Origin: Gemmatimonadota bacterium | GTDB lineage: Bacteria; Gemmatimonadota; Gemmatimonadetes; Gemmatimonadales; GWC2-71-9 | Direction: 5' to 3' | Assembly (NCBI GenBank): GCA_039586365.1 | Contig: JBDHKN010000032.1 | Location: 1 to 64,000, forward strand | Length of the DNA: 64,000 bases | Shown here: positions 15,037 through 44,908 of the stretch, piece after piece | Numbering within the stretch: position 1 is the stretch's first letter | How the letters are laid out: each line of letters opens with the position of its first letter | The notes under the pieces: model-generated | Seen by the model: only the letters and a program-made list of their open reading frames with translations | Told to the model about the DNA's origin: nothing | The model's database searches: none | Translations under genes and position numbers: made by a program

Positions 15037-15792
15037 ATGCCTCCTCCTCGCGTACCGGATCTGAGCCTGCCCAAGACGAGCAAGCCGTTCTTGGGGGGTA
15101 CAGCTACGTCCATCACGGTACACGCTGCGCTGTTGATCGCGATCATATGGTCTGGTGGCCGGGCGTCTGACGAGCTATTCCGTGCTGGTGGTGGGGCCGG
15201 GCCATTGGGCGGCGGGGGCGGCGGCGGTTCCCAGTTCACCTACGTGGAGCTGCCAGCTTTTATAACCTCGCCCCGGGCCGAGCCTGAACCGCCGCGCCGG
15301 GCCAGAGACGTGCCCATTCCCAAGCCCCAACTCAGAGAGATTCCCAAAGAGACTCGGCCCCTCAATCTGCGTCCACCGACTGGGCCCATTGTAGCTACGA
15401 TAAACCCTGGTCGGGGTGCCGGATCGGGCGATGGCTCGGGCATCGGGTCCGGATCCGGCAGCGGGGCGGGAACCGGGCGAGGCACCGGCGTTGGTAGTGG
15501 TCAGGGACCTGGCACGGGTGGCTCGGGAGGCGCAGGGTTCGGACCGAGACTGCAACAGGCCCTGATTCCGCCGAGCGATTGGCCTGACGAGGTCAGAGGA
15601 CAGGAATACAAGGTCCGGTTCTGGGTCGATGAGCAGGGCAGGGTGACCAGGGTGGAGGTGGAGCCTCGGATTCCGGATTCGGCCTACCGCAAGAAGTTCC
15701 TCGACAAGATGCGTGAATACGTCTTCTCACCGGCTCGCAGGAGTGACGGCACTGCGATCGCGGCGTCTGTAGAGATACAGATCTTGTTCTAG
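15037..15792 (+). CDS. TonB-like protein with Gly/Ser/Thr-rich linker
   Basis: SITVH TM anchor, long GxGxG tract, TonB-C-like VRFWVDEQGRV...FSPARR. Confidence 0.65.
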   Translation: MPPPRVPDLSLPKTSKPFLGGTATSITVHAALLIAIIWSGGRASDELFRAGGGAGPLGGGGGGGSQFTYVELPAFITSPRAEPEPPRRARDVPIPKPQLREIPKETRPLNLRPPTGPIVATINPGRGAGSGDGSGIGSGSGSGAGTGRGTGVGSGQGPGTGGSGGAGFGPRLQQALIPPSDWPDEVRGQEYKVRFWVDEQGRVTRVEVEPRIPDSAYRKKFLDKMREYVFSPARRSDGTAIAASVEIQILF

Positions 15793-16703
15793 TGGTGACC
15801 CAGCTCCGCTGCCAGCGCGACAGCTCCACGAGCTGGATCAACCTCCCCCTCAGCACAACGCACCGCAGTAATCCGCTCCCGGACGACGGCCAGCAGTTCG
15901 TGCCGGACCGGAGAGTCGCAACTCAGCAGTCTGCCGGAGAAGGCCAAGCCGGCAGGCCGGTGCTGCTCAGGAAATCGGTCCACCAAAGCTTCAATGTGTC
16001 GGGCCAGCTCGGCGGCCGCGGCCTGCACGAGCGCGTTGGCCACCGCGTCGCCCGCTCGTGCGGCTTCGCACACAGTGTGTGCAATACCGGTGACAGCGGC
16101 GCGGTCGGGCGAGCGACCCGACTGGTTCAGTGCGGCGGCAGAATCCGACCCGGCGGTCAGATCGACTGAGTCGGTCAGTACCGTGCTCGGTCCGCATCCG
16201 TTTGCCGCCTGGGTGACGGCATCCAGTGCAGCCCTTCCGAGCGCGTAGCCGCTTCCCTGATCTCCGTACTGCCAGCCCAATCCTCCGACCCGCCAGATGC
16301 GACCTGCCGGATCGCGGGCATATGCGATCGAGCCGGAGCCGGCACAGATGACGATCCCAGGGCCGTGTCCGAAGCCGTCGTGAAGCGCGATCATACCGTC
16401 CGTGGTGATCTCGAGTGCCAACTCGCGTCCGAGTTCGGCCGCCAGCAGAGCGGAGAACTCGGTCCGGATATCCTGCCTTCCGGCGCCTGCAGCACCCACG
16501 ACCACCGCATCGGGGAGGGTGGCCCCATGCCGTTGCAGCAACTGGTAGACAAGGTCGCCGACCAGCTTAGCCGAGGATCGAAGACTATCGGCTGCCAGGG
16601 CGGCTCCTGGTCCGGTCACACGCACGCAGGGCTGGAGCGATTCATCAGCGAGGGCGGCCTCCGTGTGCGACGCGCCGACATCGATTCCGATCAGGATGCT
16701 CAT
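15789..16703 (-). CDS. BadF/BadG/BcrA/BcrD-type N-acetylglucosamine/MurNAc kinase
   Basis: IGIDVGASHT, ICAGSGSI, RVGGLGWQYGDQGSGY; ATG overlaps the upstream stop. Confidence 0.85.
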   Translation of the reverse strand: MSILIGIDVGASHTEAALADESLQPCVRVTGPGAALAADSLRSSAKLVGDLVYQLLQRHGATLPDAVVVGAAGAGRQDIRTEFSALLAAELGRELALEITTDGMIALHDGFGHGPGIVICAGSGSIAYARDPAGRIWRVGGLGWQYGDQGSGYALGRAALDAVTQAANGCGPSTVLTDSVDLTAGSDSAAALNQSGRSPDRAAVTGIAHTVCEAARAGDAVANALVQAAAAELARHIEALVDRFPEQHRPAGLAFSGRLLSCDSPVRHELLAVVRERITAVRCAEGEVDPARGAVALAAELGHH

Positions 16704-18136
16704 GGTGGCCGAGGATCTTGGCGGAGCCGGCTGGAAAGAAGCCCAGTGCCGACTGCGATGGCCGTGCCGAGCGGTACGTACCAGGGCCAAGCCAGGTCTC
16801 CGAACGGACCCGGTTTGACCAGGACGACCACAAGCATGGTCACGGTAGCCACGACAACCGCAGCAATTGCGTCTGACTGCCGTACACGGTGGGACAGGCC
16901 GGCAAGGATGTATGTCCCGAGCAGGCCGCCATAGGTGATCGAGGCCACTGAGAGGGCCAGCTCCACAACTGGTTGTTCGGTAGACCTGAACGATAGTGCA
17001 CCGCAGGTCAAAACCACTGCCCATCCCAAAGTGGCCCAGCGACCTACGGCAAGCAGATGGCGAGAATCTCGCCGACCGGTGAGTGGAGCATAGAAGTCGT
17101 GGGTCGCGGCAGAGGCGAGAGAATTGAGGGATGAGCTGACGGTGCTCATTGCCGCGGCGAAGATGCCGGCAATGACCAGGCCGGAGAGGCCCGCCGGGAG
17201 TCGGTCCACTACGAAAGTCGGGAACAGTTCGTCCCCAGCGAGTGACGGATTGTCTGCACCGGCTGCCCAGATGAACGTGCCGACCAGTAGGAACACCGCA
17301 AATTGGACTATGACCAGTATCCCGGACCCAACCAGAGCGCGCCGCGCATGACTCAGCGTCTTGGTTGCGAGTAGACGCTGAACGATGAGGTGATCTGTTC
17401 CGTGGGATGCTGCAGACAACAGAGCCCCGCCGAGCAGACCTCCTGCCAATGTGTACGTGCGCGAAAAAGAGATCCGCCAGTCTATGGTTGTCAGCTTCCC
17501 GGCATTCGATGCTTGAGCAATAGCGTCACCGAGGCCGCCGGCCAGACCCACAGCCACAATGATCGCCGCCAATCCCGCAACCACATATAGTCCCATCTGC
17601 ATCACATCGACCCAAATCACCGCCTTGATCCCCCCCGCCCACGTGTATGCCACGGTGGCTACGGCGACAATGATCACGCACCAGGGAATCGATAGCCCGG
17701 TGACGATGTGCAAGGGGATTGCCGTCGCGAAGACGCGTACGCTGTCTCCCAAGGCCCGTATGGACATGAACACGCCCGAGGCGACCTTACGGGTGGGCTT
17801 CCCGAACCTCGTTTCAAGGCGAGCATAAGCCGTCTCCTGGTCGCCACTGAAGTAGCCCGGCAGCAACCATAGAGCGACGGCGATGCGGCCTATCAAGTAG
17901 CCGAAGGGGAGTTGGAGGAAACTCAGGTCGCCCCGTGCAGCGACCCCAGGTATCGAGATCACCGTGAGTGCGGAGGTCTCGGTGGCGACGATCGAGAGCA
18001 TCACGGCCCACCACGGAATCCCGTGGCGACCCAGGAAATAGTCAGCCGCGTCAAGCTGCTTGCGAGTGAAATAGAGCCCGATGGCGAAGACCACTGCGAA
18101 ATAGGCCGCCATGACCCCCATGTCTACGCCGTTCAC
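16700..18136 (-). CDS. Sodium:solute symporter (SSS) family transporter
   Basis: SIVATETSALT, GGIKAVIWVD, DHLIVQRLL, AAAMSTVSSSLNS; many TM segments. Confidence 0.92.
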   Translation of the reverse strand: MNGVDMGVMAAYFAVVFAIGLYFTRKQLDAADYFLGRHGIPWWAVMLSIVATETSALTVISIPGVAARGDLSFLQLPFGYLIGRIAVALWLLPGYFSGDQETAYARLETRFGKPTRKVASGVFMSIRALGDSVRVFATAIPLHIVTGLSIPWCVIIVAVATVAYTWAGGIKAVIWVDVMQMGLYVVAGLAAIIVAVGLAGGLGDAIAQASNAGKLTTIDWRISFSRTYTLAGGLLGGALLSAASHGTDHLIVQRLLATKTLSHARRALVGSGILVIVQFAVFLLVGTFIWAAGADNPSLAGDELFPTFVVDRLPAGLSGLVIAGIFAAAMSTVSSSLNSLASAATHDFYAPLTGRRDSRHLLAVGRWATLGWAVVLTCGALSFRSTEQPVVELALSVASITYGGLLGTYILAGLSHRVRQSDAIAAVVVATVTMLVVVLVKPGPFGDLAWPWYVPLGTAIAVGTGLLSSRLRQDPRPP

Positions 18137-18162
18137 ACTAGGCTCCCCGAGCACAACGAGAA

Positions 18163-18187
18163 ACGGCCTGCGAGAGTCGCAGGCCGT
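18163..18187 (-). terminator. Probable intrinsic terminator after the iscA-like gene
   Basis: ACGGCCTGCGA-N3-TCGCAGGCCGT stem followed by a T-rich run on the minus strand. Confidence 0.6.
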
Positions 18188-18218
18188 CCGTCAGTCAGAG
18201 ATGGCAGCAAGAAAAGCG

Positions 18219-18581
18219 TCAGGCGGAAAACGACTCGCCGCACCCGCACCCGCCTGTCGCGTTCGGGTTGGTGAACGTGAAACCGGAAGCCTGCATGGTA
18301 GAGACGTAATCGATCTCGGTTCCCTGCAGATATTGACCGCTGAATGCGTCTACGAATACCCGCAAGCCGTCTTGCTCCACGACAATGTCGTCGTCCAAAG
18401 CCCGCTCTTCGATGTTGAGCCCGTATTTGAATCCCGAGCAGCCACCAGGCATTACCGTTACCCTCAACCCGGCGGTCTCAGGCGGAACGTCCTCTTGCTC
18501 GATAAAGCTGCGCACTTGCTCGAGGGCCTTTTCCGTCAAAGTAATCCTGACTGTCGTCTCAGGCCGCTGTGTTGTACTCAT
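18219..18581 (-). CDS. HesB/IscA/ErpA A-type Fe-S carrier
   Basis: GGCSGFKY and NPNATGGCGCGESF. Confidence 0.95.
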   Translation of the reverse strand: MSTTQRPETTVRITLTEKALEQVRSFIEQEDVPPETAGLRVTVMPGGCSGFKYGLNIEERALDDDIVVEQDGLRVFVDAFSGQYLQGTEIDYVSTMQASGFTFTNPNATGGCGCGESFSA

Positions 18582-18690
18582 CCAGAAAACCTCCATTTTT
18601 GCTGCCGCAACATAGACGGGGGCGGAATTCGTGTCAACGCGCGACGAAGTAAGCTATTTCCAAACAACGATTTGGCCTGGATTGTTCCGG

Positions 18691-18783
18691 CAAGGGCGGT
18701 AACAGGCGGTCCAAGGCGGAAGAGGGTGGTAAGAAGGCTGTAGATGGCGCTAACGGGCTGTGACGGGGCCGACCTTACCGCCC
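18691..18783. repeat. Degenerate short GGCGGT-core repeats in an intergenic region
   Basis: aagggcggta, caggcggtcc, aaggcggaag, agggtggtaa, plus an inverted copy ttaccgccc. Confidence 0.4.
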
Positions 18784-18820
18784 GTGTGGTGTGGTGCTGG
18801 GTTACCGCCCTGGGGTGGAG

Positions 18821-19996
18821 TTATGGCGGTGGGGTAAGAGCTGCCACCACCGAATCCGCCAACATGCCTCGTATCTGCCTAATCGCGTTGTTGTCTCGAG
18901 TCGGGTGTACTCGGTTCGTGAGGAGGATGATGAATAACTCTCGCTGCGGATCGACCCACAGACTTGTGCCTGTGAAACCTGTGTGACCGAAACTATCGGC
19001 TGACATCGTGGTGCCCGCGGAGCTTCCTTCGCGGCTTGGCGTATCCCACCCGAGAGCCCGGGTTGAACCTTCCGGGCCGGGCTGGCGGTGCACGAACTCG
19101 CGCACGATTTCGGCCGGAATATAGAGTGGGCTGTCAGGTGTTAGGCGGCCGTGGTATGCGTCCAGCATCCATTGGGCGAATCGTGCGAGGTCCGGTGCGA
19201 TGCTGAAGAGTCCAGCGTGCGCGGACACGCCTCCAAGGCGGACTGCGTTCTCGTCGTGGACCTCTCCCCTGACTACTCGGCCTCGCCAGGGATCATCCTC
19301 TGTCGGTGCGATGCGGTCGAGCCAGTGCTGCGGCGGGAGGTAGCGCGTACGGTCCATGCCGAGTGGACCAAAAACACGCTCTTGTAGGATCACATCCAGC
19401 GACCGACCCGCTATTCGCTCCACAGCCAGGCCAAGCGTGATCGCGCCCAAATCCGAGTAGCGATATGCCTCGCCGGGTTGGTTTTCGAGCCGAGCTGCCA
19501 AGACGCTATCGACCGCCTCGTCGCGCGTAGCGGTCTCTAGGTGGAGCGGTCGCCACGCGGGCAGTCCTGAGCTGTGGGTGAGTAGATGCCTGACCAGCAC
19601 GCGGTCCTTGTCGGGGCCCCTGAACCGCGGAACGTAATCGGCCACCGGCCTATTCAGGTCGATCTTTCCCTCAGCTGCCAACAGCATCACAGCGGTGGTC
19701 AGGCCAATCACCTTGGTCAGGCTGGCAAGATCGTACACTGTGCTGTCGGTGACTGGTCGGGCATCATCGTCACCGTAGTGGCCGGCCGCCGTCGCGTAGA
19801 CAACCCGTCCCTTGAATCCGACTTCGAGTACCGCACCTGGGAACGCGTGGGAGTCAACGGCGGATTGCAGTAACCGCTGGACTCCTGCGAAACGGGTGGA
19901 GTCTGCCTGTCGCGCGGAGGCTCGCGCGACAGGGAGCGGTGAGCAGACCGTAGAGGTAGCAAGCGCCGCAACCGAAAGTAGAACCGTGAGTCTCAC
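18821..19996 (-). CDS. Serine hydrolase, beta-lactamase class C fold (AmiE-like)
   Basis: DLASLTK (SxxK), YSD, GEVHDENA, HAGLFS, FGHTGFTG; GTG overlaps the nagZ stop. Confidence 0.9.
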   Translation of the reverse strand: MRLTVLLSVAALATSTVCSPLPVARASARQADSTRFAGVQRLLQSAVDSHAFPGAVLEVGFKGRVVYATAAGHYGDDDARPVTDSTVYDLASLTKVIGLTTAVMLLAAEGKIDLNRPVADYVPRFRGPDKDRVLVRHLLTHSSGLPAWRPLHLETATRDEAVDSVLAARLENQPGEAYRYSDLGAITLGLAVERIAGRSLDVILQERVFGPLGMDRTRYLPPQHWLDRIAPTEDDPWRGRVVRGEVHDENAVRLGGVSAHAGLFSIAPDLARFAQWMLDAYHGRLTPDSPLYIPAEIVREFVHRQPGPEGSTRALGWDTPSREGSSAGTTMSADSFGHTGFTGTSLWVDPQRELFIILLTNRVHPTRDNNAIRQIRGMLADSVVAALTPPP

Positions 19997-21783
19997 CGGC
20001 GTGGCAGGTTGAGGCCGAATCCCCGGGGATATACCTCGGACAGCGTGATCGGGAGTCGGCCCGAGATCGGCGCTCCTCCCGCAAGCGCGCGAGACACCGC
20101 CAGCTCCGTGGCCAGGAAGTCGCTCCAAGCAATGAGGTACCCACCCGTGAAGCCCGCGACTTGGTTCAGGAGGTAAGGGCTGCCCAGAGAAGCCAGGATG
20201 GTCGGCTTGGTCTTATCCGTCTCGAGTATGAGTGACGCCAGTGAGTCGGGCAGCTGTATGTGTCCCCGCCCGGCGATGAATCGCACACCCATGGCAAATA
20301 CTACCCGCGGGTTCTGGTTGATCACGACGCGAGCCGAATCGTAGGAAGCCGAGCCGGATGCAGGGTAGAGCCGAAACGGGTTCACGGTGTCGCCCAAAGC
20401 GCGCAGTTCCCCGATTAGCGTGTTGCCTATCGTGAGGTTGGTTTCCTCGGCATACAGAATCACAGCGGTGCGCTGCCGTGACTGTCGCAGGTCCCGGAGT
20501 GGTCCTTCCTGGATGAGTGTCAGTGAGCGAGCTGCTATGTCATTGGCGCTCTGCTGGAACCCCATTTGGCCCACCACAACTGGAATGCTGTCCAAGCTCA
20601 CCGTTCTGCGACGGAACAGGCCTGCTTCAACCTTGAGCCGGAGGACCCGCTCAACGGACCGATCCAACCGCTCCAGGGATATGCGAGCAGAGTCCACGGC
20701 GACCACCATCGCCTCGATTGCAGCCGTGGGGTCCGCCGGGATAAGCAGCATGTCATTGCCGGCCAGGAAAGCCCGCACCACGCTCTCTGCAGCTCCGTAC
20801 TTGCCGACTATGGCTCCCATGCTGAGCGCGTCGGTAAAGACCAAACCATCGAACCCGAGTGAGTCCCTGAGCACGTCGGTCGTCACGATGCTTGAGAATG
20901 TGGCTGGAAGGGGATCTGCTCCCCCATCGATGCACGGCAAGGCCACGTGCGCTGTCATGACGGCCGTGACCCCTGCCTCAATCGCAGCTCGAAACGGGAC
21001 TAACTCGAGCGTGTCCAGGCGATCCCAACACGCGGGTACAACCGGGAGGTCGATGTGCGAATCCGATCTTGTATCACCGTGCCCGGGAAAGTGCTTGACA
21101 GTGGTAAGGAGCCCGTTGTCGCTGGCGCCGCGCACGTAGGCCGCAACTAGTCTGCTCACCGCGGCAGGGTCTTCCCCAAAAGACCTCGTGTTGATGATCG
21201 GATTCGCAGGATTGTTGTTGACATCTGCAACGGGCGAGAAGGTCATGTGTATGCCTGCAGCCCGTGCTTCTAGTGCGGTTACTCGGCCAAGTTCATATGC
21301 GTCGCTCGTGTCGCCCGTCGCGCCGATGGCCATCGCCATGGGGAACGACGTGCCTCCGACGAGGCGCATGCCCGATCCCCACTCCAGGTCGGCTGCTATG
21401 AGTAGTGGTAAGGCTGACCGCTCTTGCAGCGAGTTGAGCTTGGCCGTTGCATCGAGCGGTGAACCGATCGAGATGATGATGCCGCCGACTCCAAGCGAGT
21501 CCACCCAGTACGCGATTCGGTCGAACTCCTCTGACTTGAGCGACGTGTAGTGTCCCATGAGCCAAGGCATGACGAGTTGACCGACTTTTTCGCGGGTGGT
21601 GAGGGACTCGAGGATCGAGTCGATAGCCGCTGGCCGAGCACGCGGTGGAAGCGTGATCTCGGGGAGGTTGGCACGAGGCGTCGGGGCCACCGGCGGTAGC
21701 TCTGCAGTCTCAACCGCGGCGCGACTGCAGGATCCCACCAGGGACGCCACACACAGAGATGCCATGAGTAGACGTTGTTGCAT
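19993..21783 (-). CDS. nagZ: GH3 beta-N-acetylglucosaminidase (lipoprotein)
   Basis: KHFPGHGDTRSDSH, FTDALSM, INTRSFGED; lipobox LVGSC. Confidence 0.9.
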   Translation of the reverse strand: MQQRLLMASLCVASLVGSCSRAAVETAELPPVAPTPRANLPEITLPPRARPAAIDSILESLTTREKVGQLVMPWLMGHYTSLKSEEFDRIAYWVDSLGVGGIIISIGSPLDATAKLNSLQERSALPLLIAADLEWGSGMRLVGGTSFPMAMAIGATGDTSDAYELGRVTALEARAAGIHMTFSPVADVNNNPANPIINTRSFGEDPAAVSRLVAAYVRGASDNGLLTTVKHFPGHGDTRSDSHIDLPVVPACWDRLDTLELVPFRAAIEAGVTAVMTAHVALPCIDGGADPLPATFSSIVTTDVLRDSLGFDGLVFTDALSMGAIVGKYGAAESVVRAFLAGNDMLLIPADPTAAIEAMVVAVDSARISLERLDRSVERVLRLKVEAGLFRRRTVSLDSIPVVVGQMGFQQSANDIAARSLTLIQEGPLRDLRQSRQRTAVILYAEETNLTIGNTLIGELRALGDTVNPFRLYPASGSASYDSARVVINQNPRVVFAMGVRFIAGRGHIQLPDSLASLILETDKTKPTILASLGSPYLLNQVAGFTGGYLIAWSDFLATELAVSRALAGGAPISGRLPITLSEVYPRGFGLNLPRR

Positions 21784-21916
21784 CGATTCGGTTACGGGAA
21801 GCTCACTGGTTTCAGGTTGAGATGTCGAAGACCGCTGTGCAAGTTAGTGACATTGGTCGCGACAGGCACGTATGGTGTGTGACGGAGTCCCCCCGCGTCG
21901 CTATGCCGGAGGTACC

Positions 21917-23308
21917 ATGAGCCGACTAAGAGCTGTGATACTCGGTCTTCTTTTGGGCAACGCCGTGGCCTGCAGCGAGGATCTGCAGGGTCCCACGGAC
22001 CAAACCCCGATTCAGGACACCGTCCCTGCCGAGATAGTCAGTTGGCTTCAGGCTAACGCAGTGCCGTTCAACACTGCCCAGGCCGGCGTCGACTACACGG
22101 ACCTCATGCCGCTCAAGGGTATGGTGGGAGACGCACGCGTAGTTTCTTTGGGCGAAGCCACCCACGGGACGCGGGAGTTCTTCCTGATGAAGCACCGCGT
22201 GCTCGAGTTTCTGGTCAAGGAACTGGACTTCAACGTCTTCGCCATTGAGGCAACCTGGCCCGAGGCCAACCGGGTAGACGACTACGTGTACACCGGTCAG
22301 GGTGATCCCGAAGTGCTTCTATCGGGTCTCTACTTCTGGACATGGAACACCGAAGAAGTCCTGGAGATGATCCTGTGGATGCGAGAGCACAACCAGAATC
22401 CTGGCGATTACCCCACAGTGAGCTTCCTCGGCTTTGACATGCAGTTCCCAGGGATGGCCATATACAATGTCCAGGTGTTTCTCCAAGCTGTGGACCCGAC
22501 CGCAGCTTCATTTGCCTCAGACCGTTATGCCTGCATGGTGCCGTACGCGAATGGGCCTACGGGCTCGTCCGGCAGCCAGGAACGGTATGGGGCTCAGACC
22601 GCGACCTATCGGGATTCGTGCCGTGCAGATCTAGCGCAGGTGTACGATTCCTTGGTGCCGCATCAAGCCGAGTACGAAGCCGCATCGTCGCCGCAAGAGT
22701 TCTCCAAAGCCCTGCGGAGTGCCCGGGTGGTCCTTCAGTACGAGGACATGGAGTCTACGCGTACGCCCGGCGCCCGTGACCTCTATATGGCGGAGAACAC
22801 GATCTGGTTGCTGGATCAGGCCGGCCCTGACTCCAAGGTCGTGCTCTGGGCTCACAACGGCCACGTGGCTGACAATCCAACGTATGGCGCAGGAGCTTCC
22901 ATGGGGCACCATCTCCGCGGCGAGTACGGTGACGACATGGTGATTGTCGGGTTCGACTTCTATCAGGGTGAGTTTCGTGCGGTCACTGCGCTGCCCGGCG
23001 GGTCCTATGGGAGTCTGGCTGTGCACTCGGTTGGTGTGCCACCTAGGCTCAGCTACGAGTACTACTTTCACAGCGCCGGACTCGAGCGCCTGATTCTGGA
23101 TCTGCGCGGGGTAGACATGGCAACGACCGCTACATCGTGGCTCGCCGGTCCCCGCAAGATGCGGTCGATCGGGGCCGTGTTCGCGCCGAGTAATCCAGCG
23201 GTCTACCTGTACGACGTGAGCCTGCCGTCCCGCTATGATCTTGTCATCTACTTCGACAACACGCGGGCTGCCATCGGCTTGCCGTATCAGCCCCCCGACG
23301 TTTGGTGA
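21917..23308 (+). CDS. Erythromycin esterase (Ere) family protein with lipoprotein signal
   Basis: LGEATHGTREF, FAIEA, GFDMQ, RDLYMAEN, WAHNGH; GGAGG RBS; NAVAC lipobox. Confidence 0.88.
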   Translation: MSRLRAVILGLLLGNAVACSEDLQGPTDQTPIQDTVPAEIVSWLQANAVPFNTAQAGVDYTDLMPLKGMVGDARVVSLGEATHGTREFFLMKHRVLEFLVKELDFNVFAIEATWPEANRVDDYVYTGQGDPEVLLSGLYFWTWNTEEVLEMILWMREHNQNPGDYPTVSFLGFDMQFPGMAIYNVQVFLQAVDPTAASFASDRYACMVPYANGPTGSSGSQERYGAQTATYRDSCRADLAQVYDSLVPHQAEYEAASSPQEFSKALRSARVVLQYEDMESTRTPGARDLYMAENTIWLLDQAGPDSKVVLWAHNGHVADNPTYGAGASMGHHLRGEYGDDMVIVGFDFYQGEFRAVTALPGGSYGSLAVHSVGVPPRLSYEYYFHSAGLERLILDLRGVDMATTATSWLAGPRKMRSIGAVFAPSNPAVYLYDVSLPSRYDLVIYFDNTRAAIGLPYQPPDVW

Positions 23309-23363: not shown

Positions 23364-24884
23364 TCAATCCTCAATCTTCCAGATAGTATCCAGTACTGTG
23401 CCGTCCACCCATTTGACCACCGCGACGGGCTGATCTGTCAACCTCGGTGGTTCCGGTTTGCCTCCTACGATGGTCTCGACCTCCTGCTTGATCTCGGCGA
23501 TTGATCGAATAGGCAGGTCCGATGTACGAACCCGATCCAGTAGGTCCTCGCGCCGGGGATTGATCGCGATCCCACGTTCAGTGACCACTACATCGATCAA
23601 TTCGCTCGGCCCGCTCAACGTAGCGACTTCGTCTACTATCACAGGTATCCGGTCGCGGAACGACGGTATTGCCAGGACGGAACAGCCCGCGAACAGGCAA
23701 TTCTGCCACCCACCGATCCCGTGAAGCAGCACTCCATCGGAGTGGGTGTTGACGTTGGCATTGAAGTCGAGATCTACTTCAGTGGCACCGAGGACCGAGA
23801 CGTCGACCATGGTCGCAAAGTTGCCCTTACCATGATAGTTGTAAGACGTGAACGGTGAAGTGGCAATGTGCCGCGGGTCTGAAGCGATCGAGGCTACACC
23901 AGCGAGGTCGAATGTCTGCCCGTCGAGGATGTAGTCAGTGAGTCCCTCCTTGAGCAGCTCCACGAGGTACTGAGTCGAGCCACCCCGGACAAACCTCGCC
24001 TTAACACCGGCATCCTTCATCATGCCCTTCAGGAACTGCACGAACGCGAGAGCGATTCCTCCGGCTCCTGCCTGGAATGAGAACCCCTCCCGCATTATTC
24101 CGGCCTCTCGAATGAACCGAGCGACGTACTCCGCTATCAGAAGCCTGTCCGGGCTCCGAGTAATTTGCGTCGTCCCGGACACGATCAGCGAAGGATCACC
24201 GATCGACTCGATTTCCACCACGTAGTCCACGTTGTTACCCTGGATCTGCCACGGGTCGGCGTAGATGGAATCGGCGAGAGCGAATCCGAGGGATCCACAA
24301 GCTGAAGGACCGTGTGACCCATCGGCATTGCCAAACGGATCTGCCGTCGGGGCGGCAATCACTGCGATGTCGATGTTGACATCACCATCTTGGATTGCTT
24401 GCCACCTACCACCGTGTGACCGCAGCACTCCCAGACCTCGCATCTTCCCGTGGGACGTGTATTCACCCAGCGGGCCGTTCATACTTCCTTCTATGTGATG
24501 TACGACGCCACTGTCCATCAATTCGATCACCGGCTCGTGACAAGGAAACGAGGCGCTGGGAAACCACATCAGGTCCTTGACACCCAGCTCGGCCGCGGCC
24601 TGCAACGGTGCCAGGGCAACTCTGTCACCATTTCGCAGGTGGTGATGGGTTGAAATCACCATCCCGTCGCTCAAACCGCAGCGCTCGAGTGCAGTCTTCA
24701 AGTCGGGAACCCGCTTGTCACCGTTGTCGGCATAGTGATGACTCGACTGAATCGGTGGACCGTGTTTGGTGCCCGTTGGCTCGTGGCCTCCCACTCCCTG
24801 GAACGGGATCTGTTGCTGCCCATTCACTATCCTGGGGACTCTCCTGCCAACGGCGTTTCTCGAGAAGTCCTTAGCGCCGCTCAT
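23364..24884 (-). CDS. citF: Citrate lyase alpha subunit/CoA-transferase (possible internal in-frame deletion near 24254)
   Basis: ISTHHHLRNGD, LRSHGGR, ACGSLGFA, FSFQAGAGG, EVDLDFNANV, VVTERGIAINP. Confidence 0.9.
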   Translation of the reverse strand: MSGAKDFSRNAVGRRVPRIVNGQQQIPFQGVGGHEPTGTKHGPPIQSSHHYADNGDKRVPDLKTALERCGLSDGMVISTHHHLRNGDRVALAPLQAAAELGVKDLMWFPSASFPCHEPVIELMDSGVVHHIEGSMNGPLGEYTSHGKMRGLGVLRSHGGRWQAIQDGDVNIDIAVIAAPTADPFGNADGSHGPSACGSLGFALADSIYADPWQIQGNNVDYVVEIESIGDPSLIVSGTTQITRSPDRLLIAEYVARFIREAGIMREGFSFQAGAGGIALAFVQFLKGMMKDAGVKARFVRGGSTQYLVELLKEGLTDYILDGQTFDLAGVASIASDPRHIATSPFTSYNYHGKGNFATMVDVSVLGATEVDLDFNANVNTHSDGVLLHGIGGWQNCLFAGCSVLAIPSFRDRIPVIVDEVATLSGPSELIDVVVTERGIAINPRREDLLDRVRTSDLPIRSIAEIKQEVETIVGGKPEPPRLTDQPVAVVKWVDGTVLDTIWKIED

Positions 24885-26124
24885 CGACTTCCTCCCACTG
24901 CTGTGACATCCTCGTCCTGAACCTTACCGGCGCGCCTTGCTGACTCCACGAGTCTCTGCGCCCGCAGGACCACTGGGGAATCGATCATCTTGGTGCCGAG
25001 ACTCACTACTCCTAATCCCTTCTGCTGCGCTTCGTCAAAGGCAGTAACGATCCTGCGGGCCTGTCGGATCTCTTCGTCTGAAGGTGTGAACGCTTCGTGT
25101 ATCGCTGCAATCTGACGTGGGTGAATGCAGCCCATACCCTCAAACCCGAGTGCTTGGGAGCGACTTCCCCACTCCCTGAGCCCGTCCAAATCTCCTACGT
25201 CCCCGAAGACCGAGTCGATGGCCTGTACCCCGGCTGCCTTGGCGGCATTGACCAACCGCGCGCGGGCGTAGAGGGACTCCGTACCCTCGCTAGTTTTCCG
25301 TACGCCGAGGTCAGCGGTGTAATCTTCCAGGCCGATCGTAAGGCCAACTATCGTGTTGGCCGCGGCCGCGATGGCGAAGGCGTGCTCTATTCCAAGGGCG
25401 GATTCGATAATCGGCATCAACCAGATCGGCCCCTCGATTTCCGCCTGGTTCAGGATCTGGCTGATTCTCTCCTCGACCGCGGCACCTGATCGGGCGACTC
25501 CACCTTGGGGATCAGGATCAGATCCGGCGCCTCCGGGACCACCTGGTCCAGATCCTCGTAGCCGAGTGGTAGTTGGTTGATGCGCACCATCCGCTCGGCG
25601 CCCTTGAAGTCAACGCATCTGAGAGCGTTTCTGACGACGATCCGCGCTGCGTCCTTCTCCGTAGGATGTACAGAGTCCTCGAGGTCCAGGATGATTCCGT
25701 CGGGTCCGTGGAGTCCAGCATTGACCATGAATTTTGGTTCGTTGCCGGGTAGGTAGAGGCGGGAGCGTCGCAGCCGGTCGCGTGCAGTAGGGCCCGTACG
25801 GGTGATAGTGCACTCGGGTCGCGCGTCTCCGGACAGCCCGGCTCGGGTCAGGGCAGCTTCGATCCTGGCAGCAATCGCGAACGGAAGAGCGCCCTTGTCA
25901 TCGATCTCGATACGGCCGTGCCTAAGCCCGAACGATTGCGCCAGACTCCCAGCGAGCTGCCTCAGGGAACTCCCGTAAAATGCCGCGACCTTGGAGACAA
26001 TGTGGATCTCGAGCCCTCCGAATTCCTCTACCTGTACCGCGACATGAAGGTCGGAGCGAACGTCGTCGCCCTTGCGGCCCGCTGCTCCTATTGCCCTGGC
26101 CGCCATGTGTGATTTCCTGGGCAT
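24881..26124 (-). CDS. citE: Fused citrate lyase acyl carrier (CitD) plus HpcH/CitE-type lyase; frameshift near 25482
   Basis: N-terminal VRSD...DDKGALPFAIAARIEAA (CitD); RRSRLYLPGN, LDLEDSV, VRIN, LIPKVES then a frame switch to MPIIESA, GLEDYTADLG, CIHPRQ, MIDSPV. Confidence 0.85.
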
Positions 26125-26139
26125 GCCGAAGCTCTCCCC

Positions 26140-27324
26140 TCAGCCAAGTTGCTCGATGATCGCGTCCGTCAACTGCGTCGTCGTCGCCGCTCCCTTTGCG
26201 ACCACATCTGGACCGCCGACCAGACGCATCATGTCGTATGCTCGCACCTTGCATGCGGCGACCACCGCGGCCACGGCGTCACGGACCCGCTTCGCCTTGT
26301 CCGATTCCTCTAGGTGGTCCAACAGCATCGCTGCGCTCAGGATCATCGCGATTGGATTCACGATGGGTGGATCCAAGTTCTCGTATTTGGGAGCCGAACC
26401 GTGGGTAGGTTCGAACACGGCAACATCGTCACCGATGTTGCCGGAGCAGGCGAATCCCAGCCCACCGACCAGCCCGGCAAACGCATCGGACACGATGTCG
26501 CCGAACATATTCCCCGCCACGATGACACCGTAGTCTTCGGGGTTCTTGGTGAGCCACATCATCTGGGCGTCGATGTTCGTGGACCACAGCTGAATGTCCG
26601 GGTAATCCCGCTGCACCGCGCGGGCCACTTCTTCCATCATTCCTGACGTCTCGCGCAATACGTTGGGTTTCTCGCAAACCGTGACCGACCGATAGCCGTG
26701 TTTCTTGGCGTACTTGAACGCCGCCGTCAGGATTCTCCGGCAGGCATTGCGTGTGAACAAGCGCAACGAGATCGCCACGTCCTCGTTCGGCACGGTGGCA
26801 AACGACTTGTGCTTGGGATGAGTGGCTATTGCATCGCGTACCTGCTGGGGAGGATTGGTCCACTCTATGCCGCAGTAGAGGCCTTCAGTGTTCTGACGGA
26901 AGATCACGGCATCCACCTCGGGTTCCTCGCGGCCCCCGTCGGCGGTCTGGCGGATGAAGTTGAGTGGATTGCCCTTGAATGACCGGCAGGGCCGGATGCA
27001 GATATCCAAATTGAACAGCTGCCGCATCCCCACTATTGGGCTGAAGTAGCTGTAACCCTTGTCCCGCAGTTCCGGTTTCAGTTCTGCGGCAGCCTGCTGC
27101 TTCGGTTTGGACGTGATGGCACCGAAGAGACCCAACTTGTGTTGCTTCAGCAGCGCGATAGTCCTGTCGGGCAGCGGATTGCCTTCGTTTATCCAAAAGT
27201 CCCACCCGATATCTGCATGGACATACTCAGCGCCAAAACCGACCGCCTCCAACACGCGGACCGCTTCTGGAAGTACGATCTTGCCGATGCCGTCGCCGGG
27301 CATCGAGACAATAGTGTGAGTCAT
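26140..27324 (-). CDS. Isocitrate/isopropylmalate-family dehydrogenase (homoisocitrate dehydrogenase-like)
   Basis: PGDGIG, YFSPIVGMR, RQNTEGLY, KPNVL, NMFGDIVSD, FEPTHGSAP, NPIAMILS. Confidence 0.9.
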   Translation of the reverse strand: MTHTIVSMPGDGIGKIVLPEAVRVLEAVGFGAEYVHADIGWDFWINEGNPLPDRTIALLKQHKLGLFGAITSKPKQQAAAELKPELRDKGYSYFSPIVGMRQLFNLDICIRPCRSFKGNPLNFIRQTADGGREEPEVDAVIFRQNTEGLYCGIEWTNPPQQVRDAIATHPKHKSFATVPNEDVAISLRLFTRNACRRILTAAFKYAKKHGYRSVTVCEKPNVLRETSGMMEEVARAVQRDYPDIQLWSTNIDAQMMWLTKNPEDYGVIVAGNMFGDIVSDAFAGLVGGLGFACSGNIGDDVAVFEPTHGSAPKYENLDPPIVNPIAMILSAAMLLDHLEESDKAKRVRDAVAAVVAACKVRAYDMMRLVGGPDVVAKGAATTTQLTDAIIEQLG

Positions 27325-27374
27325 GTTGTATTGATATCCTCTTGCTCTCTCGTTACGTGGCGAGTTCCCAACAC

Positions 27375-27399
27375 TCAATGGTCAATCGTCAATCGTCAA
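27375..27399. repeat. Short heptamer tandem repeat (TCAATCG)
   Basis: tcaatgg tcaatcg tcaatcg tcaa; the aconitase stop codon lies within it. Confidence 0.6.
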
Positions 27400-29271
27400 A
27401 AGCCAAACTCCTCACCGCGGTATGTTACGGTGCTCACCGCGAAGTCGATGTCTAGCTGATCTCCTGGGATGATGGTCAACTGTTTCGCTGCAACCGCATC
27501 GCCAAGCTGCCGCTTCACAGCGGCAACTAGCTCGGGGCACTCGATACAGATGAAGCCATTGTTGTAGGCATTGCGCAAGTACGTTTGGGAGAAACTCCCG
27601 GCGATCACTAAAGCGATGCCTTTGGCCTGTAGTGCGGTTACCGCCTGTTCGCGGCTGGAGCCCGTGCCGAAGTTCCAAGTGCCAACCAAGATGTCACCCT
27701 TGGTAGTCCTGCCGACAAACTCTGGGTCATAGTTTTCCATGACCACCTGGGCCATCTGCTCCCATGTCACTTCGTCGCGGGTGTAGTACTTCTTGTCGTA
27801 GATCCCATCCGTGTTCAGGTTGTCCTGTGGCAGGAAGATCAAACAAGATCAAACGGCCGTGAATGCTGTCGGGGAAGCCAGGCTGGATCTCGACAGTCTC
27901 GCCGGCCGTGCGAGCTGGCGCGTGGTCGGTTATGCGGCGCTCAGGGCGGCTGCCGTCCGAAGGCCAGGGACCTGTGATGTAGCCGGCCACAGCCGACGCT
28001 GCCACGACAGCGGGACTGGCCAGGTAAACCTGCGCGTCGCGGGATCCCATCCGTCCCTTGAAGTTGCGATTGGTGGCCGAGATTCCCACTTCACCGGCCT
28101 CGAGCAGCCCGGCACCGAGACCGATGCACGGGCCGCAGCCGGCTGGAAGCGGCTGGGCTCCAGCATCGAGCAATGCATCCCATGCTCCTGAGTGCCGTGA
28201 CGCCTCCTCAACCTCTTTACTCGCGGCTGATACATAGAGCTGCACACCAGCAGCCACTTTCTTGCCCTTGATCACGCCGGCGGCTGCCTCCAGGTCTTCC
28301 ATGCGGCTGTTGACACAGGACACGATATAAGCCTTCTGGATCGCGACCTTGTCTTGCTCGATGTCGGCGAGCGACCGCATGACTTGAACGGTGTCCGGCC
28401 CGGAGACGTGCGGACTCAATTGGCCCAGGTCCAGCACGATCTCGCTGGCGTAAGTTGCGTCGGCGTCAGGCGCCGGGGGGTTCGCGAGCCAGGAAGCGAT
28501 CTCCTGGTCTGTATATCGAACGGGACCCTGAGCCTGTAGTACTTTGTTACGGTGGCGGAGATAGTCCACCGTAACCTCATCCACCGGGAACCAACCGACC
28601 AGCGCACCCCACTCGGTCGTCATGTTCGAAATCGAAAACCGCGCATCCATACTGAGGCTGGCAATTCCCGGCCCCGTGAACTCCACGGCCGCGTTCAGCA
28701 CTTCACCCTGGTTGTAGATACCGCAGAGGGTAATGATCACGTCCTTACCGGTCACACCCTCGCGCAGCTCTCCCTCAAGAACCACTTTCACGGACCGCGG
28801 GATCTGCCACCAGAACTCCCCAGTAGCCCAGATGGCCGCCGCGTCCGTGCGAACAACCGGTGTACCGAGTGCTCCCAGAGCCCCGTACATGTTGGAGTGG
28901 GAATCAGATGCCACCACCAATGCCCCGGGCACAACGTATCCTTGGGAGACCATGATCTGGTGTCCGATTCCGGTGCCGGCGGGGTAGAAATCGATGCCGT
29001 GCGCTCTGGCGAAATCCTCGATCTTGTTGTACTTGGCAAGATTGGTCTCTGAAGTATTCTGAATCTCGTGGTCCAGTGCGAACACGGGTTGCGACGGGTC
29101 AAGAACTCTGGTCGCACCGATCGCATTGAATTTCGTTATCACTGCGGCGGTATTGTCGTGCGTCATGACGTGCCGCGGGCGCAGTGAAACCACGTCACCG
29201 GCCCGCAGGGGCCTGCTGGGGCCTTCTGTCACATGCATGTGGGCGATCTTCTCTACTATGTTCTCACCCAT
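27396..29271 (-). CDS. lysF: Fused (large plus swivel domain) homoaconitase of fungal Lys4/LysF type; frameshifted by a 10-bp duplication at 27835-27854
   Basis: MTHDN, FYPAGTGIGHQIM, ASDSHSNMYG, SCVNSR, GCGPCIG, SATNRNFKGRMG; swivel domain DNLNTDGIY, NFGTGSSRE in the next frame. Confidence 0.8.
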
Positions 29272-29290
29272 TCTAGTCTCCTAGGCCCTG

Positions 29291-30667
29291 TTACTTGTCG
29301 GCCTTGCAGAGGTCCATCAGCTCCGAGATCGAGCCGAGTTGCTCCAAGTTCCACACCGCCTGTTTGAGGCGTGCCCGAGACCGATCAGTTAGTACTGGAG
29401 CCGCCAACGCATCGAATTTCTCCTCAACCTCCTGGTCGGTCAGCGGATTGCGGGGGTCACCCTTGGGGAAGTCCAATTGCTTTGGGATCTCGCGACCGTC
29501 AGTTGTCTTGATCGTGACGATAACGCGCTGGAGCTTGGGGAACACCGCCTCGATCTCCGGATCCGCTACCACATGGACCTTGTTCAGCTGGGCTCGGATC
29601 AGTGGATCCATGATCTTTTCAGGCTCGAATTGCGCCGGGGTCACCTGGCGATCCGCAATCGCAGCCGCAATCACATAGGGGAGGCTGTGGTCGGCGGTCT
29701 CTTTGGACCGCGGGTCGTACTTGGAGGGATCCGCCAAGATATCCGCGGCCCGGGCCAGCGACCGGATGTGTACTCGCTCAATCTGTTCGGGTGCCAGGTC
29801 GTTTTCTCTCACGATGTCCAGCACGGCTGAAATCGGTGCATGTGTTAGGCCCTCGGTTGGGAATGCCTTCATACTGCAGCGTTCGATGCGCCAGGATTCA
29901 CCCAGGTCATCGACCAGCACGTTCAGGCGCCATTCGGGTCCGAAGCAGTGAGTGAGTCCTTCTTTGCCGTCTATCACGTGCTCTGGTCCGGTGTACCCTT
30001 TCTCGGCCAGCAGTGCTGCCATCACCCCACTTTGTGTGGCCAGGGGATCCACCGTGTTCTTCATCATGGTGAGTTTGCCGGCTGTAACAGCTCCCAGTGT
30101 CGCGTGGCGCGCAGCCGAGATTCCGATGGCGTGCTGCATCTTGTCCCACGATAGTCCCAGCATCCGACTGGCTACGATGGGCGAGACGAACGCGGTCAGC
30201 GTTGCGTGGTGCCAGCCGCGCTCTCTGATTCCTGGGAACGCGGCCTCACACAGCCGCATCTCGAATTCATGACCCAGGACTATTCCCAGTATGAGATCCT
30301 TACCCGTTCCGCCCGCTCGCTCACCGCAGGCGATCGCCGCGGGAATGATGTCTGAGGGGTGGGAGGGATCCTGCTGCCAATAGATGTCGTTGTAGTCCAT
30401 CACGCGGACCATCAGTGCGTTGGCCAGAGCGGCCGATACCGGGTCCGTCTTTCTGCCGCTGCCGAGGATGGTGGCCGGCCCCGACCCGCCGATCTCCTGC
30501 AATACCTCCAGGGCAATGCGGGCGTCTTCCTGACGGAATCCGCCCAGGGCGCAGCCCAGCGAGTCGAGCAAGTAACGGCGCGCTTCGTGGACCGCGCGCT
30601 CGCTGAGCTGTTCATAATTGAGTTGTGCGGCCCACCGGGCCATCACGGCCGTAATCGTCTCGGGCAT
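29291..30667 (-). CDS. prpD: MmgE/PrpD family dehydratase
   Basis: RVMDYND...SHPSD, RGWHH, GKLTMMK, ETADHSLPY, PKGDPRNP. Confidence 0.9.
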   Translation of the reverse strand: MPETITAVMARWAAQLNYEQLSERAVHEARRYLLDSLGCALGGFRQEDARIALEVLQEIGGSGPATILGSGRKTDPVSAALANALMVRVMDYNDIYWQQDPSHPSDIIPAAIACGERAGGTGKDLILGIVLGHEFEMRLCEAAFPGIRERGWHHATLTAFVSPIVASRMLGLSWDKMQHAIGISAARHATLGAVTAGKLTMMKNTVDPLATQSGVMAALLAEKGYTGPEHVIDGKEGLTHCFGPEWRLNVLVDDLGESWRIERCSMKAFPTEGLTHAPISAVLDIVRENDLAPEQIERVHIRSLARAADILADPSKYDPRSKETADHSLPYVIAAAIADRQVTPAQFEPEKIMDPLIRAQLNKVHVVADPEIEAVFPKLQRVIVTIKTTDGREIPKQLDFPKGDPRNPLTDQEVEEKFDALAAPVLTDRSRARLKQAVWNLEQLGSISELMDLCKADK

Positions 30668-30709
30668 CTAGGACTCTCCTGCGGCTTGGAGCCAGCGGCC
30701 TTGCCGCGG

Positions 30710-31252
30710 TCAAGCAGCCAAATTCTTGAATGGTAGATAGCTCATGAAATCGGCGTGGTGCACGATCGTTGCTTCAGTGCTGCGTTTCACCAGGTCGCCC
30801 TCGCCAGCATGCGCCGCGATGATGTGGCACACCTGTTCAGGAACACCACACGACATGGCGAGCGCCACACCGGTGAAGGGGTGTCTCAGGCTCTTGCCCC
30901 GCTCACTCTGCACAACTTTCCCGTCGACCTTCTCGTATTCCAACAGCTTCCCCACGTCGGCCAGTATCGCGCCGGCGATCACTACGTCTAGGTCTATCTC
31001 GAGCGACTTCCCCAAAAACTGCTGCATGGCCTGTGCTGCTGGTTTGGCAATGTGTACCACACAGCGTTTGTGCTCCATGAAGGTGGCGGGGCAATCGGGC
31101 ACCAACAGGGTGAAGGGTATCTCGTCCAGATCGCCGGGATCGAGGGGGCTCGCTGCGAACGCCTTTATCCAAGTTTGAGTGACCTGTTCCCGCAGCTCGT
31201 GGTTCTCAATCCACTCCAGTTCGGGCCACAGGCGCTCCACTGCTGCACGCAT
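30710..31252 (-). CDS. HD-domain (HDIG-like) metal-dependent phosphohydrolase
   Basis: EH, GAILADVGKLLEY (HD motif appears as AD), LRHPFTG, HIIAAH, IVHHAD. Confidence 0.85.
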   Translation of the reverse strand: MRAAVERLWPELEWIENHELREQVTQTWIKAFAASPLDPGDLDEIPFTLLVPDCPATFMEHKRCVVHIAKPAAQAMQQFLGKSLEIDLDVVIAGAILADVGKLLEYEKVDGKVVQSERGKSLRHPFTGVALAMSCGVPEQVCHIIAAHAGEGDLVKRSTEATIVHHADFMSYLPFKNLAA

Positions 31253-31386: not shown

Positions 31387-32634
31387 GTGGATATGCAAGT
31401 GATGATTACACGCCAACCGTTCGCGGCTGGTTTCAGACTGCTTGTGGCGTTGATCTGTCTCGTCGCATGTACTGATCGGATATCTCAAGGGCAGACGGTG
31501 CGACCTGGAATTGACGTGGTGTTGGCCGATTCAATCCATCTGGTCGCAGGAAGACGCGTTGGGCTGCTGACCAACCAGACTGGGGTGGATCGTTCCGGGG
31601 TGAGTGATGTGGATCGTCTGTTGCAGGCCGGTGTGGAACTCACTGCCTTGTTCAGCCCCGAGCATGGTTTCCGCGGGGTGCTTGATCAACCGATTGTCGA
31701 TCACGGCACCGACCCTGCCACGGGACTACCGATTTACAGCCTCTATGGCGAGCATCAGGCGCCCACTGTGGAGATGCTGGCAATGATCGACGTGTTGGTG
31801 GTCGATCTGCAGGACATAGGTGCCCGGACGTACACGTACATCTCCACGACACTGCTTGCCCTGCGTGCCGCCGCTGTGGGGGGAGTGCCGGTCGTGGTGC
31901 TCGACCGGCCCAATCCGATCGGCGGCCAGCAAATTCAGGGGCCCGGACGCGACCAAGGTTTCTCTTCTGAGGTGGGCATGCTCCCGGTCCCGCTGCGCCA
32001 CGGGATGACGATCGGCGAGCTGGTAAAGTTCGGCAACGATGTGCTGGAGATTGGAGCCGACCTCACCGTGGTTCCGGCCCACGGTTGGCGGCGGGACCTT
32101 TGGTACGACCAGACCGGTCTCCCCTGGGTGCGCCCGTCACTCAACATGCCCGACCTGGAGAGCGCCACCCACTACCCGGGGACTGTACTGTTTGAGGGCA
32201 CCAACCTCTCGGTGGGTCGCGGTACACCGATCGCATTCCAGGTTCTCGGAGCACCTTGGCTGGAGCCGAGCGACATCTTGGCGGCAGTTGGCCAGGAGCC
32301 AGGGGTGGAGCTGTCGGATACCGTAGTTGCGCCACACGCTCCCAGTGATGGCAAGTACCCCGACATTGCGCTGCCCGCGCTGCGTTTCCGGGTGATCGAC
32401 CGAGCGTCCTACGATCCGACCCGACTGGCCGTCCGGCTGCTGGGGGCGATATCACAGCTCCATCCCGACTCGTTTGAGATCAGGAACGCCCGATACTTCG
32501 ACAACCGGGCCGGCTCAGCGGCGATCCGTGACTGGCTCGGCGGCGAGCCCCCACGCGCTGAGATCTGGCGGTTGTGGGACGCGGACCTCTCCGAGTTCCG
32601 GAGAGCGCGGCAACCCCACCTCATCTACAAGTGA
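31387..32634 (+). CDS. namZ: Exo-beta-N-acetylmuramidase NamZ (DUF1343) family
   Basis: GLLTNQTG, FSPEHGFRG, DLQDIGARTYTY, LDRPNP, RHGMTIGE, NLSVGRGT. Confidence 0.92.
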   Translation: MDMQVMITRQPFAAGFRLLVALICLVACTDRISQGQTVRPGIDVVLADSIHLVAGRRVGLLTNQTGVDRSGVSDVDRLLQAGVELTALFSPEHGFRGVLDQPIVDHGTDPATGLPIYSLYGEHQAPTVEMLAMIDVLVVDLQDIGARTYTYISTTLLALRAAAVGGVPVVVLDRPNPIGGQQIQGPGRDQGFSSEVGMLPVPLRHGMTIGELVKFGNDVLEIGADLTVVPAHGWRRDLWYDQTGLPWVRPSLNMPDLESATHYPGTVLFEGTNLSVGRGTPIAFQVLGAPWLEPSDILAAVGQEPGVELSDTVVAPHAPSDGKYPDIALPALRFRVIDRASYDPTRLAVRLLGAISQLHPDSFEIRNARYFDNRAGSAAIRDWLGGEPPRAEIWRLWDADLSEFRRARQPHLIYK

Positions 32635-44830: not shown

Positions 44831-44908
44831 TATCACCCTCACCGCCAGCTTCCACCGGGTCGCGGACTGCCCTCCGACTGCGGTGGATTTTTCCGTTTGG
44901 GAGCCGCA

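Follow-up and report, generated by a model that had tools for sequence, protein, structure and literature searches.

A conserved six-gene cluster in Gemmatimonadota and other bacteria: a candidate lysine-linked pathway through (S)-homocitrate

A stretch of 64,000 nucleotides (nt) from a Gemmatimonadota genome (assembly GCA_039586365.1, contig JBDHKN010000032.1; hereafter the window) contains a six-gene operon in which a homoaconitase is joined to PrpD-family and citrate-lyase-like genes. We propose, at about even confidence, that this module converts lysine-derived 2-oxoadipate to 2-oxoglutarate and acetate by reversing the upper alpha-aminoadipate pathway by way of (S)-homocitrate. Every substrate, cofactor, direction and stereochemistry given below is what we infer from the observed gene content, synteny, family scores, residues and co-occurrence. 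The operon genes are as follows.

30710-31252, minus strand: HD-fold protein, 180 amino acids (aa); weak match to TIGR00277, HD fold in the structural model
29291-30667, minus strand: MmgE/PrpD-family protein (Pfam PF03972 and PF19305); predicted (S)-homocitrate/cis-homoaconitate (de)hydratase
27396-29271, minus strand: fused Lys4-type homoaconitase (TIGR00139); two frames in this assembly
26140-27324, minus strand: beta-decarboxylating dehydrogenase (PF00180); predicted NADP-type homoisocitrate dehydrogenase / 2-oxoadipate carboxylase
24881-26124, minus strand: CitD-like domain fused to a CitE-type acyl-coenzyme A (CoA) lyase (PF06857 and PF03328); frameshifted copy
23364-24884, minus strand: CitF-type CoA-transferase (PF04223); in-frame gap of 15 codons

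This order and strand are those claimed in an earlier note on this DNA, and the motifs that it quoted (FYPAGTGIGHQIM, WATGEFWWQIP, DNLNTDGIY and YFSPIVGMR) were all found in the window sequence. Neighbouring genes overlap or are 3-40 nt apart, with a single larger gap of 72 nt. A scan for promoters and terminators gave signals at chance level. In Pfam and NCBIfam scans, only the aconitase among the six proteins reached a specific NCBIfam cut-off.

In the species collection, the aconitase query gave at least 597 relatives, of which the best 80 loci were analysed. All six genes occurred together in 28 of the 80 loci, in the window order in 22 and in another order in six; gene order is thus conserved, and the clustering is far beyond chance. 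Only the aconitase was found on that strand in 15 loci, some of them on short contigs. Carriers include members of the Gemmatimonadota, Acidobacteriota, Ignavibacteria and Marinimicrobia, and 10 of 61 related (kin) genomes carry the aconitase. An exact 30-base pattern had no match in metagenome contigs.

A closer look at ten loci from Verrucomicrobiota and Planctomycetota revealed that they are without the CitD-E/CitF pair. A gene resembling the succinyl-CoA synthetase (SCS) beta subunit stands in its place and, where called, an SCS-alpha/citryl-CoA-lyase fusion also lies in that slot. The lyase domain at locus L041 exceeds two citryl-CoA lyase cut-offs. Judging from these sequences, an ATP-dependent ligase and citryl-CoA-lyase-like pair is predicted to replace CitD-E/CitF in the two phyla. 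Two unrelated lyase systems, both of the pro-S type, alternate in the same slot, which we count in favour of our proposal. The HD gene (56 of the 80 loci) is retained with both versions.

The large piece of the aconitase alone scored 585 bits on the TIGR00139 homoaconitase model (cut-off 529.9), in line with the likeness to fungal homoaconitases claimed earlier, and has three Fe-S cysteines, in SCVN and GCGPCIG. According to the available part of PMC3556520, homoaconitases interconvert only homoaconitate and homoisocitrate, aconitases dehydrate homocitrate, and (2S,3S)-methylcitrate requires a dedicated dehydratase. These limits support the earlier suggestion that the PrpD-family protein covers the step that homoaconitase cannot perform. 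That protein is 24% identical to E. coli PrpD and keeps its active-site motifs (DxND, HPSD, His164, FPxE and D-H); its best PDB scores are to iminodisuccinate (IDS) epimerase and IRG1. The label PrpD given to it holds for the MmgE/PrpD family only. The protein is not a PrpD orthologue, scoring 88 bits where the cut-off is 575, and 65-91 bits against 458-950 across the PrpD equivalog models.

The dehydrogenase is less easily placed. It lies under every NCBIfam cut-off (best AksF2, 263.9 versus 540) in a library that showed no fungal Lys12 model. SPIV and HGSAPKY are invariant among 18 aligned orthologues. The protein aligns to E. coli Icd at S113, R119, R129, R153, Y160, K230, D283, D307, D311, K344, Y345, Y391 and R395, with the catalytic Arg/Tyr/Lys/Asp set, as we take these residues to be, fully kept. 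The earlier statement that it lacks the SxN motif of isocitrate dehydrogenase (ICDH) holds for Asn115, which is replaced by Ile, but not for Ser113, which is kept; the E-x-x-L-L pattern of isopropylmalate dehydrogenase is also absent. YFSPIVGMR presumably resembles the YSSPIVALR of fungal Lys12, a stretch that the PDB alignments did not show for the S. pombe enzyme. Specificity residues are not given in the available parts of PMC4360740 or PMC1963480. At the cofactor site, HGSAPKY matches K344/Y345 of E. coli Icd, and Y391/R395 are also present, whereas the homoisocitrate dehydrogenase (HICDH) of Thermus has D-I at the first two positions. We take these residues to form an NADP-type site, and such a site would suit a reductive role.

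In the proposed pathway, the dehydrogenase would carboxylate 2-oxoadipate with CO2 and NADPH to homoisocitrate, the homoaconitase would dehydrate this to cis-homoaconitate, and the PrpD-family enzyme would hydrate the latter to (S)-homocitrate. CitF would then transfer CoA from acetyl-CoA with release of acetate, and CitE would cleave the resulting homocitryl-CoA to 2-oxoglutarate and acetyl-CoA, with free CoA instead of a modified carrier. CitE is a pro-3S lyase by its model name. Enzymes of the CitE and citryl-CoA-lyase types remove the pro-S arm, citrate-synthase-fold lyases are also pro-S, and PrpD dehydrates towards the same arm. By textbook stereochemistry, (S)-homocitrate is predicted because this pro-S geometry would apply with 2-oxoglutarate replacing oxaloacetate. 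Homocitrate synthase and aconitase handle (R)-homocitrate; the (S) form mirrors the metabolite known from nitrogenase and fungi. Since aconitases dehydrate homocitrate, a genome with AcnA could process homocitrate from a synthase without any PrpD; the PrpD-family gene would have a purpose where the lyase yields the opposite stereochemistry. A word search of the literature for this argument gave no match. The choice between (S) and (R) offers a sharp and cheap discriminator. The reverse direction is preferred because the module is linked to irreversible steps of lysine catabolism, a separate synthase is kept, and the cofactor site is of the NADP type.

The CitD-E fusion fell under the TIGR01608/TIGR01588 cut-offs, and CitF scored 434.7 bits on TIGR01584 (cut-off 501.45), the damaged window copies being those scored. 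Identity to the E. coli proteins is 37% for CitF and 36-38% for CitE. Nearly all orthologues of the CitD-like part read R-S-D where E. coli has S14-G-D, so that Arg aligns to Ser14, which we take to be the attachment site of the prosthetic group; the adjacent Ser is invariant and could serve as carrier serine. Searches with positive E. coli controls gave no CitG in any of 43 module genomes, no CitC above cut-off in 36 and no CitX in the one genome searched; the canonical citrate-lyase prosthetic group is therefore unlikely. The lyase would instead use free CoA thioesters, not a modified carrier.

The HD protein shares H61, D99, H124, H143, H148, H165 and D168 among 38 orthologues. The His of the canonical H-D pair is Ala, Ile or Cys in all 38, so the H...HD...D metal motif is absent. 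Its structural model (pLDDT 93) matched YhaM best (TM 0.69), and no function was found through homologue names, atlas or fold search.

The source genome (G000, 86% complete) was examined for related pathways. Outside the operon it has AcnA, NADP-ICDH and Si-citrate synthase, so that an ordinary branch of the tricarboxylic acid (TCA) cycle, which the earlier note had allowed for, was not borne out. A tartrate dehydrogenase, LeuB and a LeuCD-like fusion likewise lie elsewhere in this genome. PrpB had no match in the 86% complete genome, and a PrpC query matched only Si-citrate synthase (26%). The methylcitrate cycle was ruled out by the missing PrpB match, and leucine-type chain elongation by the separate LeuB and LeuCD-like genes. 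The cluster is, as had been noted, neither a methylcitrate cycle (no PrpB) nor a standard cit operon (CitG and CitC not found) nor a standard aminoadipate operon (no synthase within it).

A lysW-lysX-lysY-small gene-lysZ-lysJ run, with a LysW ending in EEDWGE, was found at G000:C30:11358-16355 (L109:8359-13356). Its LysX carries the F/I/T/N-S signature, which the available text of PMC12998189 ties to aminoadipate. LysA, lysine 6-aminotransferase (LAT), piperideine-6-carboxylate (P6C) dehydrogenase and a GcdH-like gene are present as well. The genome has the lysW and lysX for which a check had been proposed, but no match, at 86% completeness, to the homocitrate-synthase-like gene of its kin. 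LysX occurs in five of the 61 kin genomes, all module-positive. In five LysX genomes checked, no SPIV-type dehydrogenase and no Lys4-type aconitase were seen besides those of the module; other family members are of LeuB, ICDH, tartrate dehydrogenase, AcnA or mitochondrial type or LeuC-like, with one contig-edge fragment per family in G003 left unclassified. The module as sole source of homoaconitase and dehydrogenase in five LysX genomes is the strongest argument for seven-carbon (C7) substrates. The synteny, the homoaconitase score and these LysX genomes support the earlier view of a conserved module on the homocitrate series.

Across module genomes, the homocitrate-synthase-like gene was found in 7 of 46, all LysX-positive and making up 7 of 10 LysX genomes; one of three scored exceeded the synthase cut-off. 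Where this gene and LysWXYZJ occur, the module's homoaconitase and dehydrogenase probably serve lysine synthesis as well. LysX was not seen in 35 of 43 module genomes (36 of 46 in a wider count), and LysA was above cut-off in 35 of 43. A lysW-type cluster with a homocitrate-synthase-like gene was also seen in Ignavibacteria G080, G082 and G085. Separately, a 23-kb contig of the source genome (G000:C121, L104), possibly a contaminant, holds an unclassified synthase of the LeuA/homocitrate synthase family among CoA-ligase and FAD-oxidase genes.

These genomes bear directly on the direction of the pathway. The same C7 chemistry could run net forward, the lyase condensing acetate/acetyl-CoA with 2-oxoglutarate in place of homocitrate synthase, and the 2-oxoadipate either entering lysine synthesis of the LysW type or passing to a 2-oxo-acid dehydrogenase and on to glutaryl-CoA dehydrogenase. 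The source genome could be read in this way, with its aminoadipate-type LysX and no match to the kin synthase, and so could G084, where lysWXYZJK and the module (L116, L151/L154) are accompanied only by LeuA- and CimA-like synthases. At locus L061 E1, E2, LipA and a GcdH-like gene share a run with the module, and the Acidobacteriota have GcdH in 13 of 14 genomes, yet no LAT. We nevertheless hold forward use to be unlikely overall. Of the 10 LysX genomes, 7 keep a synthase-like gene, three of them from the same genus, most module genomes (36 of 46) show no LysX, and the linkage to LAT and P6C dehydrogenase, which already make 2-oxoadipate irreversibly, would be hard to explain. Of the earlier suggestion that the lyase makes or cleaves the tricarboxylate, cleavage is thus favoured, and its role as a stand-in for homocitrate synthase (synthase found in 7 of 46) is less supported. 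Two further module genomes, G081 and G086, had no HMGL-like synthase match, which we count for the lysine-catabolic proposal.

The link to lysine breakdown was followed in 44 of the 61 kin genomes. LAT was present in 8 of the 10 kin that carry the module and in none of the 34 that lack it; for P6C dehydrogenase the corresponding counts were 9 (one of them partial) and 3. Of the ten genomes with the ligase-type module, all have P6C dehydrogenase and seven have LAT, one of each being under cut-off. At L048, LAT, P6C dehydrogenase, ligase/lyase, HD, homoaconitase and dehydrogenase genes lie on one strand, and at L045 LAT, P6C dehydrogenase and a glutaryl-CoA-dehydrogenase-like gene adjoin the module. 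The module therefore tracks lysine-degrading genes in Gemmatimonadota and in Verrucomicrobiota/Planctomycetota. Against this link, LAT was found in seven and P6C dehydrogenase in six of the other 26 module genomes. The saccharopine dehydrogenase family, found in 35 of 46 genomes, does not discriminate.

Several observations weigh against lysine catabolism through this module. In an RpoB tree of 26 genomes, four of the five genomes with module and LAT fall in one clade; counting that clade, the isolated G024, and G032, which lies in the clade but has neither of the two, the co-occurrence amounts to about three independent events. None of the 14 soil Acidobacteriota module genomes, which are among those 26, has LAT or P6C dehydrogenase at the thresholds used, none has LysX, and 3-hydroxyanthranilate 3,4-dioxygenase was above cut-off in one of five Acidobacteriota tested, which leaves their source of 2-oxoadipate unexplained. 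A GcdH-like gene is present in 54 of 66 genomes, G000 included; it does not discriminate, and a standard outlet for 2-oxoadipate therefore exists. G084 and the source genome, with LysW genes and no matching synthase found, point to the forward direction; G084 fits forward use of the lyase and makes a natural test case. The cofactor site does not fix direction, as NADP-ICDH works oxidatively. A putative NAD-ICDH ranks first among the PDB matches of the dehydrogenase, before Thermus HICDH, so that its sequence alone does not name the enzyme. Finally, G085 showed no other PF00180 gene and no monomeric isocitrate dehydrogenase, so its module dehydrogenase could be an ICDH, or there may be a gap in this metagenome-assembled genome.

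That last case would agree with a module acting on citrate and isocitrate, in citrate fermentation or an unconventional reverse TCA segment. The latter has been proposed for Ignavibacterium album, whose IALB_1146/1147 (CitF and a CitD-E fusion) were read as an ATP-independent citrate lyase (PMC3362086, in part available). The dehydrogenase also keeps Ser113 and the cofactor residues of NADP-ICDH. Against this stand the aconitase score above the homoaconitase cut-off, the replaced Asn115 beside an invariant SPIV, the full ordinary set of AcnA, ICDH and citrate synthase elsewhere in the genome, the failure to find CitG and CitC, and the linkage to lysine genes; the available text of PMC3362086 has no match for aconitase or isocitrate. 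We regard citrate as an improbable substrate. A different or longer tricarboxylate seems hardly more probable, be it one formed as 2-oxoadipate is lengthened to 2-oxopimelate, which would then be oxidised to succinyl-CoA, or an environmental acid. Thiolase, acyl-CoA dehydrogenase and E1/E2 genes near some module copies would fit such a role, as would a dehydrogenase that passes no named cut-off, and the HD protein and Acidobacteriota carriers are otherwise left unexplained. However, the neighbouring acyl-CoA dehydrogenase is closest to glutaryl-CoA dehydrogenases, and genomes with LysX and the synthase require C7 activity from the module enzymes.

The preferred lysine-catabolic pathway can be compared with four known systems. 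With the upper alpha-aminoadipate pathway (homocitrate synthase; aconitase with Lys4/LysF or LysTU; Lys12/HICDH), the module shares a Lys4-type fused homoaconitase, an HICDH-like substrate site and an isomerisation spread over two enzymes (PMC3556520, available part). It differs in having no synthase in the operon, a PrpD-family protein for aconitase, an NADP-type site for D-I and an attached lyase; most carriers are without LysX and have LysA. CitE, CitF and a CitD-like domain are common to citrate (pro-3S)-lyase (E. coli citCDEFXG), but here CitD is fused to CitE, Arg stands at the Ser14 position, CitG/CitC were not found and the subunits are under cut-offs. The 2-methylcitrate cycle (PrpC, PrpD, AcnB, PrpB) likewise combines a PrpD-family enzyme with PrpD-like motifs and an aconitase-family hydratase; in the module, however, the PrpD is not orthologous, the genome has no PrpB, and the final enzyme is a dehydrogenase, a type of enzyme that cannot oxidise 2-methylisocitrate at its tertiary alcohol. 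The same logic (reductive carboxylation, isomerisation, cleavage) is seen in the reverse TCA segment of ICDH, aconitase and ATP-citrate lyase or citryl-CoA synthetase plus lyase, whose SCS-like and citryl-CoA-lyase domains recur in the alternate version of the module. The predicted substrates are one carbon longer, lysine genes are linked, and the host genomes have a normal oxidative TCA set. The module is thus likely a reverse-TCA-like segment, one carbon up, assembled from aminoadipate, PrpD-family and citrate-lyase parts.

No description of the cluster was found in the literature searched, which left most subscription journals outside its coverage, beyond the mention of I. album CitF/CitD-E (PMC3362086), and the pathway may to that extent be called uncharacterised, as it had been; the available part of PMC3534657 does not discuss the cluster. 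If the proposal is true, abundant uncultured bacteria would have a new route of lysine/2-oxoadipate turnover, oxygen-free and CO2-consuming, that gives a TCA intermediate instead of acetyl-CoA alone. Three activities would be new, namely a homocitryl-CoA lyase, an (S)-homocitrate dehydratase and an NADP-type homoisocitrate dehydrogenase. The CitD-E/CitF of I. album, proposed as a possible reverse-TCA citrate lyase in the available part of PMC3362086, would be read differently, with caution against counting genes of this kind as markers of citrate lyase. The proposal would also give LysW-type lysine synthesis its missing homoaconitase and dehydrogenase, both in Ignavibacteria and in the present genus of Gemmatimonadota. 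More tentatively, we suggest a widespread, oxygen-independent and CO2-fixing lysine catabolism through (S)-homocitrate, with a new homocitrate lyase in two non-homologous forms and a CitG-independent free-CoA complex of the citrate-lyase type, with lysine carbon passing into 2-oxoglutarate, and with the homoaconitase and dehydrogenase shared with LysW synthesis in some lineages.

The window copy itself carries four lesions in three of the six operon genes, relative to the intact orthologues of kin genome G002. The aconitase gene is thrown out of frame by a 10-nt duplication near 27835 and, when aligned to the G002 orthologue, ends about 34 codons short; the CitD-E gene is frameshifted near 25481, and citF has lost 15 codons in frame near 24254. 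Contrary to what had been claimed, the aconitase motifs are therefore not in one polypeptide in this assembly, the duplication splitting the frame. Orthologues in nine kin genomes form one open frame of 653-738 aa. Decay of the operon in this strain, a matter of this copy only, would fit the contrast with other genes, of which about one of the 36 compared is split in frame (counted by eye against same-genus orthologues, and blind to in-frame gaps). However, contigs from other sequencing runs (depth 2-7, none spanning the operon) point elsewhere. Those of runs X1 and X2 are without the 10 extra letters in the aconitase gene, runs X1-X3 have one letter more at the CitD-E break, and both reading frames are restored by contigs with 2-3 differing letters across 333-739 bases. 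At 24255, the loose ends of run X2 spell out the stretch absent from citF, and a near-identical piece ending at 27398 continues with 69 further letters that fit an intact aconitase end. Local mis-assembly is accordingly the favoured and probable explanation, and strain-private decay a rather unlikely one. An aconitase loop at 27760-27810 reads YDKKYYTRDEVTW where orthologues read YGKDYTYRE/DDMTP; this divergence looks real because X1 and X2 contigs cover the loop with few differences.

The surroundings of the operon are of other kinds. Genes at 15789-21783 and 31387-32634 flank it and resemble peptidoglycan recycling (NamZ, GH3 glycosidase, serine hydrolase, sodium:solute symporter and BadF-type kinase). 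An erythromycin-esterase-family lipoprotein-like gene (21872-23308, plus strand) separates citF from the GH3 gene; it scores far under the EreA/B/D cut-offs and is not at this place in kin loci L091, L093 and L095. Genes for 2-oxo-acid dehydrogenase E1-beta and E2 were found 14 kb from the operon (44897-47780, plus strand). Elsewhere, histidine ammonia-lyase-like genes lie near the module at L036, L039 and L022, and at L022 a glutamate formimidoyltransferase-like gene comes after the module.

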